Notes: generated by a model not told the origin, from the letters alone. Positions 5,096-60,657 are shown, numbered from the stretch's first letter. The stretch: DNA of 64,000 bases from Novakomyces olei (GCA_016906335.1 JADEYG010000002.1:1488001-1552000); one strand, 5' to 3'. Numbers and translations: made by a program.

Positions 5096-5209
5096 TTAAC
5101 CCTAAGAAGTTTACTTAAGAAGCCTTAACCCTAAGAAGTTTACCCTAAGAAGTATTAACCCTAAGAAGTTTACCCTAAGAAGCTTACCCTAAGAAGTATT
5201 AACCCTAAA
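5096..5209. repeat. Eight-unit heterogeneous array of (T/C)T(A)ACCCTAAGAAG, telomere-like (TTAGGG core on minus strand)
   Basis: ttaaccctaagaag tttacttaagaag ccttaaccctaagaag tttaccctaagaag tattaaccctaagaag tttaccctaagaag cttaccctaagaag tattaaccctaaag. Confidence 0.9.
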
Positions 5210-6896: not shown

Positions 6897-6924
6897 TAGG
6901 GTTAGGGTTAAATTACTAGGGTTA
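6897..6924 (-). promoter_or_regulatory. TAACCCTA cluster (putative Tbf1/Teb1 Myb-domain sites) ~190 bp upstream of the BSD gene
   Basis: tagggttagggtta...tagggtta. The TTAGGG/AACCCT motif is the known site of the fungal telobox factors Tbf1 and Teb1. Confidence 0.5.
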
Positions 6925-9733: not shown

Positions 9734-9747
9734 TTAACCCTAACCCT
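9734..9747 (+). promoter_or_regulatory. TTAACCCTAACCCT putative Tbf1/Teb1 site
   Basis: Two tandem TAACCC units in the BiP upstream intergenic region. Confidence 0.45.
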
Positions 9748-19260: not shown

Positions 19261-19330
19261 TAGGGTTTTCTTTCTTTTATTATCACAATATTAACCCTAC
19301 TTAACCCTACTTAAAGCCTGGTTAACCCTT
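19261..19330 (+). promoter_or_regulatory. TTAACCCTAC tandem sites upstream of RBG1 (Tbf1/Teb1 or HomolE-like)
   Basis: ttaaccctacttaaccctac...gttaaccct lies ~90-125 bp before the ATG. An RRPE-like aaaaaattt is at ~19388-19396. Confidence 0.5.
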
Positions 19331-19414
19331 TTTTGCGCATACGTATATATTACTACAGTCAATCTTGTATGTCATTGTTGAACAACAAAAAAATTTGAGT
19401 TCACGTCCGGCATC

Positions 19415-20675
19415 ATGACGACGATAGAAAAGATCAAAGAGATTGAAGATGAAATGATAAGTCCCCCTTTTACGTGCTTAGCGTTTGAACTACATCATGC
19501 TGACATTTCTATACGCCAAGACCCAAAAGAATAAGGCCACGGCCAAACATTTGGGGATGCTAAAGGCCAAAATGGCAAAATTAAAGCGCGAACTAATAAC
19601 ACCACAATCGTCTGGAGGTGGTGGTGGAAGTAAGGCTGACTTTTCTTAATCCGTCTCCTGTCTCTTTAGTTTCAAGACGCACTCTAATCTATTTAGCTGG
19701 TTTTGATGTCGCTCGGACGGGTGTGGCCTCGGTTGGATTTATAGGGTTTCCTTCAGTGGGCAAGAGGTACATTGATTGTCTTTTGCTTCAGTTCTAATCT
19801 CTTGCAGTACACTGATGAGCAAACTTACCGGTACACATAGTGAACAGGCCGCATACGAGTTTACTACGCTCACTACTGTACCCGGCGTGCTCTATCACAA
19901 TGGCGCAAAGATCCAGATCCTTGACTTGCCAGGTATTATCGAAGGCGCCAAGGACGGAAAAGGACGTGGACGGCAGGTTATTGCTGCAGCTCGTACATGT
20001 AGCTTGATTTTCATCGTACTCGACGTTATGAAACCTTTAACGGACAAAAAAGTTATCGAAGACGAGCTGGATGGCTTCGGTATACGCCTGAACAAATCCC
20101 CACCAAACATTCTTTTTAGGCGGAAGGATAAAGGCGGTCTAAGTATCACAAACACTGTGCCCCTCACACATTTAGACTTTGACGAGATCCGTGTCGTGTG
20201 TCAGGAGTATAGAATAAACAGTGCTGATATTGCATTTCGATGCGACGCTACGGTGGATGAGCTTATCGATGTGCTGGAAGGCAATCGTATCTACATACCC
20301 GCCGTCTATGTCCTCAATAAGATTGATCAAATTTCCGTGCAGGAGCTGGACCTCATATATAAAATTCCTCATGCTGTGCCTGTGTGTGCAAACCACGAGT
20401 GGAATTTTGACGAATTACTGGAGACAATGTGGGACTACCTATATCTTGTTCGGGTTTATACAAAACCGCGCGGTTTGGCCCCGGATTACTCGGATCCTGT
20501 TGTGTTAAAGCGTAATAGGTGTACGGTGGAAGACTTTTGTAATGCTATTCACAGCAGCATCAAAGAGCAGTTCAAGCACGCTTATGTCTGGGGCAATAGT
20601 GTTCGCCATCAGTCGCAACGCGTGGGGTTAACCCATGTTCTACAAGATGAGGATGTTGTTACCATTGTTCGTTAG
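19415..20675 (+). CDS. RBG1: Ribosome-binding DRG-family GTPase Rbg1/DRG1, 4 exons, 364 aa
   Basis: Exons 19415-19456, 19515-19629, 19697-19766, 19808-20675 give [28 protein letters not shown]...[25 protein letters not shown]...YEFTTLT...DLPGII...NKID, followed by a TGS domain. Confidence 0.95.
19457..19514 (+). other. Non-canonical AT-AC spliceosomal intron (U2-type signals)
   Basis: Reads ATAAGT...GCTGAC-ATTTCTATAC. It is the only consensus-like junction I found that restores the conserved [13 protein letters not shown] frame. Confidence 0.85.
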
Positions 20676-22156: not shown

Positions 22157-23533
22157 GCACTACTGCGCAAAAACGTCGTGCCACTGGTGCTATGAGATTA
22201 CAGCTGTCGCTAAATATGACGGCGAGTCTTATGTTCTGGCGTGAAACTCACATGACTTGTAGTCCCGAACAGTTATCTTTATACCAAATTTGGCACAAGT
22301 GCATCTCGCGAACCGAAGGAGCGGTCGCTGCATCGTAATAGCGCCAGCATTATTGCAACGAGCCAAGCTATTAAACTCATCCCTCTGATTTGCCAGCGGA
22401 TAGGGAGAAAACGACGTATGATGCATTGCGCCCCGCACTTTCCGCATTGGACGATTTTATTAATTTACAGCTTCCCACTTTATCGTACTTGTCAGTCGGT
22501 TTTAATCTTAATCCAACCTCGGCGCATCGCACACCTGCGCTGCCAAGTATAGATACGCAAGCAATACTGCTGCGAGACACTGCCGGCGGCGGATTAATTA
22601 CCTATTGAATGCTAGCCAAAGATGATACGGGCGCTATGGTACTAACTGCACACCGTGTGCAAGCACGGCTTGACCTTGGCAGTCAATTGGTCAGCATAGC
22701 GCAACGTCACCTTTCTGTAAGCTCGCCTACTGTATCATACGTGTGCTGTGCAAAAATTACAGTGCCAAAATACTTTTCGGTCCTTTAATGAAATAAATAA
22801 ATAAATAAAATAATAGATAAATAGATAAATAGATAAATAAATACCGGGAACGGCTACCCATGTATCTATCTATCTATCTATCCATCCATCCATCCCGAAT
22901 GGTACTTGTATACGATAATTTCCAAGTATTCGCCCAACTCAAACACAGGAATCCCAGCCAGCCAGTCCTTGCGCCTACTCCAGCACTGGGCAAAAGTATC
23001 GTGTATGTGATTGAGCGCCGTCTCCTATGCCGCCGTATAAACGCGTAGCCGCACGGCTCTTGGAGTCTTACCGCATTTGTGTATTTTCCTATTCCGCACA
23101 GTGCTGGCAACAATGTAGGGTATGTTGGCGCTTTGTACGCGCCGCATCTACTACTTGTGCATCGAATTTCGAGCGCCCGGACCTAGACTTGCAGACCATT
23201 TTTGTACAGTAGTGGTCCAGTCTCCGTGCCGGGTCACGCGCACAACCCGAAAGAATCCGTTACTTTATACACAGCCCAAGTTTTCTTCTTGGAGACGAGA
23301 GGGATTAATAATACGGTATACCGTGTTTTTCACGCCTGCCGACAAGCGCAGGCCGCGAAGCTTGCACCACACTTGCCGGTATGTTACGCAGCAGCCAGCG
23401 TGATTTTCAGGATAATTTATATACACAATAGTAATGTACTTGTCACGTATACCACCACACCGATACATCAATTGTTAGGTCACACTCTTTAATCGTATAA
23501 ATTTAATAATACCCTTTACAGCTCAAGACTTGC

Positions 23534-25465
23534 ATGGTCGAGTCTTCGGATGATGCTGACTGGCTTGACAACAAGCATAGATCGTCTACAATAAGCGTCC
23601 ACGCAGAATCACTACTCGACCAAATTGCGAGCGTTGCCCACCTTCACGCTACAATTCACAATGGCATGCAGCGGCGCTCTTCGAGCATGAGTTCTTCTGC
23701 TGCAGGAGGAGCTCCTTCTGCAGCTTCTGCTGCAGGAGCAAACCTTAATTTTGACCAACATTCCAGTGCTACAACAGACGAATCACCAATTTCAAGAACG
23801 CCTTCAAAAAACAGTGCCTCAGAGTCAAGTTTTGTGACCCCGTCGTACGCGAGTCCGCCGAGTACTCGATCCAGCTCTCTCGTTCTCTCGGGAGCCTCGT
23901 CTTACTTCAATTCTGCTCAACGTTTCCTCAAACGCAAACCCAAGCTCACCAATGTAGACCGCAAGCAAATGTGCCTCTACCATCAAGCGAACCCGAGCTG
24001 CAAACAGGAGGACATTGCAAAAATTTTCGGGGTGGATAGGACCACAGTGTCCAAGGTGCTTCGGCAAAAGGAAAAGTACCTTAGCATCGAGGACAATGGC
24101 GACGCCATTGTTCTGCCCCGACGAAATTACCTGCCTGAAATTGAACGCACAGCTGTTGTTTGGGCCACAAACTGTGTAAACAGAGGCGAAAGAGTGACAG
24201 AGGTAATGCTGTGCGATAAAATTCGTGAATTTGCTTTTGCCATGGGCACTAGTGACGCACAAATCTATCTGGCGCCCAATTGGCTCGCAAATTTTAAGGA
24301 ACAGCACCCGGGCCTCATTGACGACACGACACCAGGATCAGCGGGGTTGCAGACTCCGGGGACGGAAGCCTCATCGATTGATGTAAGCATGAGCGCTTCT
24401 TCATGGATGGATGCTCCAGCGACTACCGCCGGGGCAGGAGCAGGCCTTCACTCTTCTACAGCTGCCACTCCGGTCCAGGCGTTTGAGCACATGAATGCTG
24501 AAAAGAGATCAATGCCTCCAAGCTCCCTGTTTACTTCTTCTTCTCGTTTCCAGGAAATGCTGAGTGCCTCTGATATGCAGCAGCAGCAGCAACAACAACA
24601 AAAACAGCAGCAGAGGCATTACATCTCTCACAGTCCACAGCAGAAACTCTCGCTGGGGAAATCGACTTATTCACAGACTCCTTTTCCCAATATGCAATCA
24701 TACTTTAGCCCTCAGCATTTTACAAAGACATATGAGGCTACTCAGCAACAGCAGCAGCAGCAGCAGCAGCAGCAACAGCAACAACAACAACAACATCAAC
24801 AGAATGATGCTGCTATATACCAGCAGCAAATAACTTCGCCGAGAGCAATGATCTCTCGATCAGGTTCGTCTACGAGCGTAACATCAGGCCCCTTAGACGC
24901 TCGGCAGATAATGACAAGTATTATTCCCGGTGGAGGTCGGTCTCAGCCTTCTTCACCCTCAAGACGAAACAGCGACAGTTCTCCTCAGCCCGCTGCCTGC
25001 CAATCAGCACAGCATGCGACTTTTCATCATGGAAATAGTACAAAATCGGGTACATGGAGAACTCGTCGGGGAAGGCACAGGATATCTCTTTCTCAGGCTG
25101 GCGGATTAGATGTTACAAGGGCGTCAGCTACAAATTTAGCTACTCCTTTGAGCAGTGCCGGGTTTGAACAACAACAACAACAGCAGCAGCAGTTTAACGG
25201 AATGAACTTTACACCAAACTCAACTGGAATTTTGAATCCGTCTGTCGAGGACGTAACAAAGGCTCTTGAGATTATCATGACCTACCTGCGCCAACAGCCT
25301 GTGGGGACTGTTGAGGTTGAAGAGTACATTACAGTGGGGAAACTGCTTGGGAAGTTCGAGCGGCTTCGCCCAAATGCAAAGGCAGATGAGAGCAATTTGT
25401 TTGGGATGTTTCCTATCCCAGGATCTTCGTTCGACGACGGTTCGTCACAGACACCAGATCGTTGA
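23534..25465 (+). CDS. CENP-B/pogo-type double-HTH DNA-binding protein without a DDE domain, with polyQ tracts (643 aa)
   Basis: RKPKLTNVDRKQMCLYHQANPSCKQEDIAKIFGVDRTTVSKVLRQKEKYL (psq-type HTH) is followed by LPEIERTAVVWA...WLANFK (CENP-B HTH). The remainder is Q/S-rich. Confidence 0.85.
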   Translation: MVESSDDADWLDNKHRSSTISVHAESLLDQIASVAHLHATIHNGMQRRSSSMSSSAAGGAPSAASAAGANLNFDQHSSATTDESPISRTPSKNSASESSFVTPSYASPPSTRSSSLVLSGASSYFNSAQRFLKRKPKLTNVDRKQMCLYHQANPSCKQEDIAKIFGVDRTTVSKVLRQKEKYLSIEDNGDAIVLPRRNYLPEIERTAVVWATNCVNRGERVTEVMLCDKIREFAFAMGTSDAQIYLAPNWLANFKEQHPGLIDDTTPGSAGLQTPGTEASSIDVSMSASSWMDAPATTAGAGAGLHSSTAATPVQAFEHMNAEKRSMPPSSLFTSSSRFQEMLSASDMQQQQQQQQKQQQRHYISHSPQQKLSLGKSTYSQTPFPNMQSYFSPQHFTKTYEATQQQQQQQQQQQQQQQQQHQQNDAAIYQQQITSPRAMISRSGSSTSVTSGPLDARQIMTSIIPGGGRSQPSSPSRRNSDSSPQPAACQSAQHATFHHGNSTKSGTWRTRRGRHRISLSQAGGLDVTRASATNLATPLSSAGFEQQQQQQQQFNGMNFTPNSTGILNPSVEDVTKALEIIMTYLRQQPVGTVEVEEYITVGKLLGKFERLRPNAKADESNLFGMFPIPGSSFDDGSSQTPDR

Positions 25466-39663: not shown

Positions 39664-40783
39664 CTAGACATCGTTTTCTGGTACCCGCTTGAGTCTTTCA
39701 GGAACGATAGCACTAGTTCGGCCTCCTACAGTAATAAACTCGATAGCTTCGCCACTTGGAAGAGCCACTTTGCCTTTGCTGCTCTTTTGCTTCTGCCATC
39801 TGTGATTGAATAGCCAGGAATCTGGAAACCTAGCAGCCTCGGCACCCACGCGTAACGATTCCTTAATCACATGCTCAATACTGTCGTGTATACGCAACGT
39901 CTCCTTTTGACTCAACGTCGAGCCTTTACGCTCGGGGTGAATCGATGCCTGGAAAAGTACTTCATCCCTAAATTATCGGAAATGACACGCATAGAGATAA
40001 TGTTAGTCTTTGTCAAATTTGCTGAAAACGACTGGGAGTATGTGTAGCACATTGACCCTTTATCTCTATTTCAAACCCATTTCCTATCTCTAAAAAAAAG
40101 AACTAAATCATAATAAAAAAACTGCAGCAAACTTACGCTACCCAATTGCCTATGCCAGCAATAACACGCTGATCAAGCAGGATAGCTTTAACCGGAGCTT
40201 TCCGCGTCGTCAGCATTCGATGCAGCCTTTCTGCGGAAGGCAATTCGTCAGCGGCGTCTGGTCCAAGTTCAGCGATAGGCGCCACGTCGCGCACGTTCGT
40301 ATGGATTAAAAAAATACGGCCGAATCTCCGTTTGTCTATGTATGCAATAGACTTTTCTGATCCCTGAGCAGTGAATACTGCCTTGTAGTATTTCGGCGGC
40401 CATTCGTTCACGTCATCGACGCGTACATCGGCGACGGGAACGGGCTCGGCGCCCTTAACCCTAAACCAGCCAGCCATTCCAAAGTGCATTACGACATGCG
40501 GGGGCGATTCCATGACCAGCCTTTGCACCAATTAGTTTGCAAAAGACGTAATGCAACGTACCAGAAATACTTTCCGTGCCTGCCGGTGCCGACGCAGCGT
40601 CTGCCATCGAGTTCGCTTGCAAACTGCTCGTTACTGCAGTTGGCGAATACTTTTGCATCTACCACCTTTTGTGTCAGCGCAAATTTCAATAAGGCAGTGT
40701 ACCGATTCTATTTGGAGAATAGCGCCTTTGAGAACACGCTCAAATTCTTGACGGGCCCGCTCTACTTCGGGCAATTCCGGCAT
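39664..40783 (-). CDS. FPG: Fpg/MutM-family DNA glycosylase (plant/fungal zinc-less type), 4 exons, ~290 aa
   Basis: Exons 40783-40703, 40665-40562, 40520-40137, 39967-39664. Catalytic N-terminus MPELPEVE, GRHGKYFW, HFGMAG, DKRRFGR, H2TH LLDQRVIAGIGNWVA|DEVL, zincless finger TVGGRTSA. Confidence 0.92.
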
Positions 40784-40894: not shown

Positions 40895-40908
40895 TAGGGT
40901 TAGGGTTA
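40895..40908 (-). promoter_or_regulatory. TAACCCTAACCCTA putative Tbf1/Teb1 site ~110 bp upstream of the Fpg gene
   Basis: tagggttagggtta on the plus strand. Confidence 0.5.
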
Positions 40909-41221
40909 ACAAGGATTGCGGGTAGTTTGGAAAACCCTGGACTTGAGGTTTGAGGCAAATAACCATCCCAAAATGTGCCGTAGATAATGTAGTAGCGTGA
41001 GATAATCTAATAGTATCCGCTGAGTGTGATTCAGCTGTGGACATGGGTTAATTTGTTTTTTTTACAGGAAAACTCGTACGCATTCTGCTCATTCTACATT
41101 TCAATTTGTATACATTTACGTAAACGAGACCGCTTTTGTAGGGACCACCTTCCTCTGTGTGCTCCGGTCCATATTTCCTGCACGGGGTATTCCTATTAGA
41201 TCTCCATCCCATCAATCTCTA

Positions 41222-57638: not shown

Positions 57639-60657
<3,019 letters not shown>

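Follow-up and report, generated by a model that had tools for sequence, protein, structure and literature searches.

The window, by which we mean the whole 64-kb stretch of DNA that was analysed, carries on its plus strand at 19415-20675 a gene of four exons, which its genomic bases and homology identify as RBG1/DRG1. Exon 1 (19415..19456) comprises 14 codons, whose translation forms the beginning of helix alpha1 in the N-terminal HTH. It is followed by intron 1 (19457..19514), a stretch of 58 nt in phase 0 that begins with AT and ends with AC. We propose that this is a U2-type AT-AC intron, and its exact removal leaves a product that is colinear with the homologues. Exon 2 (19515..19629) was placed by translation and by alignment of the spliced product, exon 3 (19697..19766), which holds the P-loop GFPSVGKS, by its bases and the same alignment. 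Exon 4 (19808..20675) forms an open frame in which homology and Pfam delineate the GTPase, MMR_HSR1_Xtn and TGS domains, and which closes with the stop codon TAG at 20673-20675. The two downstream introns, placed by their bases and the spliced-product alignment, are short and of the ordinary fungal type: intron 2 (19630..19696) measures 67 nt and reads GTAAGG...CTAATC...TTTAG, while intron 3 (19767..19807) measures 41 nt and reads GTACAT...CTAATC...TTGCAG.

Exon 4 matches the Pfam families MMR_HSR1 (PF01926, 7.7e-13), MMR_HSR1_Xtn (PF16897, 5.2e-40) and TGS (PF02824, 4.7e-22), and the protein displays the features of the DRG1/Rbg1 class, namely an Obg-type G domain with the S5D2L insertion and a C-terminal TGS domain. 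The top database matches of exon 4 carry the names Rbg1/DRG1 (Saitoella 79%, Pneumocystis 74-75%). Protein matches and exon 4 domains thereby bear out the first-pass annotation of this DNA, which had named the gene RBG1/DRG1; the assignment to DRG1 and not DRG2 follows the names of the best matches, the tree described below being built without a DRG2/Rbg2 outgroup.

When the four exons were joined by coordinate with a script, they gave 1095 nt, that is 364 codons and a single terminal stop. Over 364 columns, the 364-aa spliced product shares 80.8% identity with the Saitoella protein; its identity to ten further full-length homologues from fungi is 72-77%. The product aligns colinearly with the Rbg1/DRG1 orthologues from end to end, N-terminal HTH included. 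Against the 11 full-length homologues aligned, the gap columns total only 1-4, and none of them falls at the junction of exons 1 and 2. All 14 residues of exon 1 match the start of two Pneumocystis proteins (P0003 and P0006), and the rest of the gene is free of frame errors in the spliced-model alignment. In yeast Rbg1 the HTH domain is reported to comprise residues 1-44, and its deletion to abolish activity (PMC3510508).

Sequence and splice signals of intron 1

On direct reading, the bases and coordinates previously given for intron 1 proved correct. Exon 1 ends ...GAA ATG at 19451-19456, and GCC AAG ACC CAA AAG AAT AAG follows from 19515. The 5' splice site (19457..19462) reads ATAAGT, which departs from the U2 consensus GTAAGT by the A at +1. 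Direct reading and a signal scan gave a putative branch site, GCTGAC (19499..19504), whose branch A at 19503 lies 11 nt from the 3' end. The intron closes with TCTATAC, last base 19514, in which TATAC (19510..19514) forms the 3' splice site; the AC at 19513-19514 is the first AC past the branch motif. The first AG past the branch lies six bases beyond this AC (19519..19520), and the donor/acceptor enumeration described below returns it as an in-frame AT-AG acceptor (19457-19520, 64 nt). This option had not been pointed out before, and neither had an ATG inside the intron (19497..19499), which is in frame with exon 2 (ORF 19482..19649) and is a candidate alternative start. Two further statements of the first-pass annotation hold: on retention of the intron, the frame of ATG 19415 reads 39 codons up to a TAA at 19532-19534 (ORF 19382..19534), and the pair formed by GT 19461 and AG 19519-19520 is out of frame. 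RNA folding of 19445-19526 gave nothing unusual (z = 0.45).

For comparison we assembled 13 introns of the window, made up of RBG1 introns 2 and 3 and 11 scan candidates chosen by eye as the most convincing. Donors in this hand-picked set are GTAAGY, GTATGW, GTGAGS or GTACAT, all 13 introns have a CTAAY branch (seven CTAAC, six CTAAT), and the distance from branch to end is 6-22 nt, a range that includes the 11 nt of intron 1. Compared with the CTAAY of this small and subjectively chosen sample of 13, the CTGAC of intron 1 is a less typical variant. CTGAY is found in two further plausible intron candidates of the window, at 42947-42825 and 47131-47084.

We enumerated all donors at 19430-19499 against acceptors up to 19559, joining the frame of ATG 19415 to that of exon 2 and keeping the stop-free pairs. 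Among the 1459 in-frame, stop-free pairs obtained, none is GT-AG. Five GC-AG pairs were rejected; they have the poor donors GCGTTT or GCTGAC, insert 8 to 14 unrelated residues and lose conserved ones. Only 19457-19514 produced the conserved junction without an indel among the 42 pairs listed. The motif E-x-E-[MIV]-x-[RK]-TQ is unbroken in 103 of the 120 listed homologues; the other 17 either start at the M just before the conserved motif (11) or are otherwise truncated (6). Alignment, enumeration and these 103 homologues agree with the initial proposal that exact AT...AC removal of the 58 nt restores the conserved N-terminus. The boundaries also cannot slide unseen, because the flanking bases differ at both ends: the intron begins with A and exon 2 with G, exon 1 ends in G and the intron in C, so that sliding both boundaries alters the mRNA.

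The case for intron 1 rests on homology and register, since a scan for signals yields AT-AC look-alikes as often as GT-AG introns. A permissive scan of the window, which required a donor-like hexamer, CTRAY 6-25 nt from the end, a Y-A-x end and flanking open frames broken by retention, returned 39 AT-AC, 29 GT-AG and 36 GC-AG candidates, and 24-40 for arbitrary control pairs. Scans of this kind were rejected as evidence, because GT-AG could not be separated from AT-AC or from other dinucleotide pairs. The boundaries fixed by homology coincide exactly with an AT and an AC; TAAGT occupies +2..+6, and a CTRAY lies 11 nt from the end. By our own arithmetic, in which uniform bases are assumed, the chance of such a coincidence of boundaries and signals is ~1e-6.

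Intron class and placement of the organism

Intron 1 combines AT...AC termini with an ATAAGT donor, a branch at the usual distance and no U12 donor or branch motif, as is typical of U2-type AT-AC introns. Its donor ATAAGTCC matches the U2 consensus except for the A at +1 and is not the U12 donor /ATATCCTT; among metazoan U2-type AT-AC introns, /ATAAGT is described as a very strong consensus (Gould et al. 2016, PMC5029451). An intron of the U12 class would have the donor /ATATCCTT and, 10-15 nt before its 3' end, a branch resembling TCCTTAAC; intron 1 has neither, and the branch motif TCCTT[AG]A[CT] does not occur inside it. With its ATAAGT donor and without U12 donor or branch motifs, intron 1 thus has U2-type and not U12-type signals, in agreement with the earlier assessment. 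Elsewhere in the window there is likewise no U12 branch motif within 400 nt downstream of any of 15 [AG]TATCCT sites. A scan of the 64-kb window at the Rfam gathering thresholds gave no match.

A maximum-likelihood tree of 43 DRG1 proteins, which as a midpoint-rooted tree of a single gene is indicative only, pairs the window protein with Schizosaccharomyces (support 97/86). Both stand inside a clade of eight rows together with Pneumocystis, Savitreella and two environmental proteins (support 99/92). The DNA appears to stem from an ascomycete, probably of a Taphrinomycotina lineage. No relative of this RBG1 above ~81% identity was found among 5.8 billion proteins. Larue et al. (PMC10639083) report no convincing minor introns in Ascomycota and Basidiomycota and the loss of most or all minor snRNAs. 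Because the protein groups with Taphrinomycotina and minor introns are reported to be lacking in Ascomycota, we infer from this single-gene placement and the cited report that U12 splicing is unavailable in the organism.

Introns near this site in relatives

A metagenome search gave 80 loci encoding DRG1 relatives, none of them close (best 73% identical). In 76 of these the sequence is uninterrupted across the junction, and many of them are contigs of 1.1-1.5 kb and cDNA-like. Among the remaining four, one lacks the region and three have an intron one codon upstream. An intron at the M|A position of the window, canonical or otherwise, was found in none of the 80 loci. The three neighbouring introns (L036:520-640, L074:1-100 and L080:1500-1720) are short GT-AG introns in phase 0 between the E and the M/I codons, hence 3 nt upstream of the site of intron 1, and their donors read GTATAT, GTACTG and GTATGT, respectively. 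The first-pass annotation had entertained the idea that intron 1 is a converted minor-intron relic. The introns of relatives near the site lend this no support, being GT-AG introns with U2-like donors one codon upstream, and no sign of a U12 ancestry of intron 1 was seen in the relatives examined. A search of genome contigs for relatives returned two weak bacterial matches only.

Among the 120 listed database proteins are 11 that begin with the M following the E|M intron site (P0004, P0005, P0007, P0014, P0066, P0079, P0082, P0085, P0087, P0091 and P0109), including proteins of Lichtheimia, Sugiyamaella and Blastobotrys and two environmental proteins that cluster with Savitreella. The gene models of these 11 proteins probably lack a short first exon, and such starts would imply an E|M intron in several lineages. 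Another metagenome locus, L010, is interrupted by an intron after Q-K-N-K, and, judging from its N-terminus, the Neolecta model may have one at the same place. Further downstream, four proteins of 285-288 aa (P0019, P0044, P0048 and P0056) begin at the M of T-L-M-S/T-K/R-L-T-G, which corresponds to the start of exon 4 in the window. This suggests that intron 3, which follows G-K-S, is common to other lineages and that the four proteins are single-exon fragments.

Discussion

Because homology fixes the boundaries on AT...AC, the signals are of the U2 type and the phylum is reported to be without minor introns, we consider it probable that 19457-19514 is a genuine spliceosomal intron of RBG1/DRG1 and that it belongs to the rare U2-type AT-AC ('type II') class. 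In U2-type introns of yeast and human, a G-to-A change at +1 is rescued, although less efficiently, by a G-to-C change of the last base (PMC1557818). Intron 1 carries exactly this A...C rescue pair in an otherwise consensus context. Splicing would then proceed as follows. U1, and U6 after it, would recognise the donor by its TAAGT (positions +2 to +6) even though +1 is an A, while U2 would pair with GCTGAC and bulge A19503, so that the lariat could form in the first step. In the second step, an A-C pair would replace the usual non-Watson-Crick G-G contact between the first and last intron bases; owing to this replacement, the AC at 19513-19514, the first after the branch, would be used instead of the AG six bases downstream. 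The resulting mRNA would join the ATG that ends at 19456 to the GCC at 19515 and encode the 364-aa Rbg1 with an intact N-terminal HTH. Full-length Rbg1 would hence require splicing of intron 1, as retention would end the frame after 39 codons.

An alternative is that intron 1 is dead, inactivated by the two terminal changes, and that translation starts at ATG 19497, giving MLTFLY- followed by exon 2. The protein would then lack the 14 conserved N-terminal residues, and exon 1 would survive as a relic or serve as a short upstream ORF. The ATG at 19497-19499 does lie in the frame of exon 2 and would allow a shorter protein to be made without splicing of intron 1 (ORF 19482..19649), its context ATCATG is the same as that of ATG 19415, a gene finder restricted to GT-AG would choose this model, and mis-modelled or truncated N-termini are common in the family (17 of the 120 listed homologues). 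We nevertheless judge this start to be unlikely. A neutral relic would not be expected to keep 14 of 14 conserved residues in exon 1 together with an intact TAAGT and branch motif, and the two terminal changes are exactly the pair for which mutual rescue is reported (PMC1557818). Moreover, a transcript that begins upstream of 19415 would present the ATGs at 19415, 19449 and 19454 before that at 19497, and the product would have a truncated helix alpha1, in a domain whose complete deletion abolishes the function of yeast Rbg1 (PMC3510508). It is less credible still that the true termini are GT...AG and that AT...AC arose as a base-call, assembly or strain artefact. Such an artefact would need two independent substitution errors 57 nt apart, both at terminal bases and each producing precisely the base required for the known compensating pair, in a gene whose remainder contains no frame error.

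We give equally little weight to a different non-canonical junction, be it AT-AG at 19457-19520 (64 nt) or a joint displacement of donor and acceptor by 1 to 3 nt that leaves the length unchanged. The former keeps the frame and has as its acceptor the first AG past the branch, and moving both sites by -1 or -3 yields E-I-A-K or E-Y-A-K, respectively, with I or Y being found at that position in three of the metagenome loci (L023, L069 and L054). The AT-AG junction would remove the conserved A-K, however, and in all 103 full-length proteins among the 120 listed homologues some residue and then R/K stand before TQ. The shifted pairs would exchange M for I, N or Y. In the yeast and human experiments, an A at +1 was rescued by C and not by G as the last base (PMC1557818), and the AT-AG junction would have the very A...G combination that calls for rescue there; the shifted termini GA-TA and AT-TA fall outside the intron classes that the cited papers name. 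A U12-type intron spliced by the minor spliceosome, finally, would share with intron 1 the AT-AC termini and nothing else, and deserves hardly any credence. The donor is ATAAGTCC and not /ATATCCTT, intron 1 contains no TCCTT[AG]A[CT], and the protein groups with Taphrinomycotina, in a phylum from which minor introns and most minor snRNAs are reported to be absent (PMC10639083).

U2-type AT-AC introns are already a described class, fungi included, and intron 1 would add an instance to it. Sheth et al. (2006, PMC1557818) list 15 natural U2-dependent AT-AC introns in human, six in mouse and three in fly. Such introns are very rare, at 0.003-0.008% of the introns in human, mouse and fly, with none in worm or Arabidopsis. 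The animal examples include SCN4A/SCN5A and TAF2 (PMC1557818, citing Wu and Krainer, and Dietrich et al. 1997). Intron 1 resembles these introns in its AT/AC termini, its /ATAAGT donor, which otherwise follows the U2 consensus, and its lack of U12 motifs. It differs from them in being fungal, only 58 nt long and located in a different gene, and in having a fungal-type branch near the 3' end. For SCN4A/SCN5A, splicing and U2 dependence were shown experimentally; for RBG1 intron 1 both are predicted. The engineered yeast and human introns with combined G1-to-A and last-G-to-C changes (Parker and Siliciano 1993; Chanfreau et al. 1994; Scadden and Smith 1995; as cited) have the identical terminal pair in an otherwise canonical U2 intron and supply the rationale for a rescue of the second step. 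Those double mutants, however, are laboratory-made and spliced less efficiently, while intron 1 is natural and resides in a conserved gene.

Within the fungi, AT-AC junctions have been reported from RNA-seq of Fusarium graminearum (PMC3577648) and of Trichoderma longibrachiatum, where they account for 69 of 14305 junctions (PMC4324775), and AT-AC II introns were hypothesised for xylanase genes of filamentous fungi (PMC1557818). For the xylanase introns, the article by Sheth et al. (PMC1557818) is the sole source that we found. Like intron 1, all of these belong to a phylum reported to be without the minor spliceosome and are presumably U2-type, but they come from Pezizomycotina and the genes named are others. 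The nested AT-AC intron of S. cerevisiae RPL30 concerns ~1-2% of the transcripts, is non-productive and has a donor unlike /ATAAGT (PMC5029451). It shares with intron 1 that it is natural and occurs in an ascomycete without the minor spliceosome; intron 1, in contrast, has a consensus donor and would be required for the normal protein. Closest in position are the E|M GT-AG introns of the three metagenome loci, which like intron 1 are short, in phase 0, in the same region of the gene and equipped with U2-type signals, but which lie one codon upstream and have canonical termini. We found no literature that links AT-AC introns to RBG1/DRG1 or to Taphrinomycotina/Pneumocystis, although supplementary lists of junctions or minor introns may hold such a case, and, among the papers listed for fission yeast, no report of a natural AT-AC intron there. 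A dermatophyte 'AT-AC' report was set aside, as the strings in question denote polyketide-synthase domains and not introns.

One may speculate, with little confidence, that the AT-AC intron descends from the phase-0 E|M intron that is widespread in other fungi and protists by a move of one codon and that it may now be a slow, regulated step. The odd termini would then be the footprint of the move, or else the outcome of a two-step path from G to C and subsequently from G to A, during which the in-frame AG six bases downstream would serve as a viable interim acceptor. Other possible origins are two substitutions in a GT-AG intron at the same site, or an independent gain. Were this slow step real, the unspliced RNA would give the 39-codon peptide or, from ATG 19497, an HTH-truncated Rbg1, and the level of a ribosome-rescue GTPase would be tied to the capacity of the spliceosome. 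The first-pass annotation had likewise suggested rate-limiting control; none of our findings supports it.

If confirmed by RNA, intron 1 would show cleanly, and in a natural setting, that a conserved housekeeping gene can carry a constitutive U2-type AT-AC intron whose donor is the consensus ATAAGT, and this in a fungal lineage that is expected to be without the minor spliceosome. U2-type AT-AC introns are the natural counterpart of the classic suppression experiments on the first and last intron bases; the mechanism is textbook knowledge, and intron 1 opens no new question. Its practical consequence concerns annotation. Because the in-frame ATG 19497 offers a model that needs no GT-AG intron at this place, it is plausible that gene finders limited to GT-AG and GC-AG would mis-model RBG1 by dropping exon 1 and starting at the intronic ATG, with damage to the HTH. 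In the annotation of this and of related genomes, AT-AC should be permitted at RBG1 intron 1.

Other features of the window

The 10-mer TTAACCCTA[C/A] is over-represented in the window, with 12 matches at up to one mismatch compared with 2.7 expected, a number that none of 100 shuffles reached. Sites were located at 19291-19310 (+), 5096-5208 (+, four copies), 6902-6911 (-), 9734-9743 (+), 40455-40464 (+) and 40900-40909 (-). Two exact copies stand in tandem 105-124 nt upstream of the RBG1 start codon, and the core of the 10-mer is telomere-repeat-like. It resembles promoter elements of the Tbf1/'telo-box'/HomolE type, which belong to translation-related genes, and it may be a shared promoter element.

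At 23510-25462 (+) lies an open frame of 651 codons with a weak match to the Tc5-transposase/CENP-B-type HTH (PF03221, E = 8.9e-4, below the curated cut-off), which may be a domesticated or decayed pogo-like element. The minus strand encodes an AP-1 gamma adaptin at 57639-60296, whose best match is from Saitoella, followed by many Pezizomycotina at 44-47%, in keeping with an ascomycete source; its best matches span 41-51%, and the 5.8 billion proteins include no close relative of it. The GC content of the window falls from ~0.49 at 4-12 kb to ~0.41-0.42 at 24-40 kb, and from 48 kb onward both GC skew and AT skew are positive.
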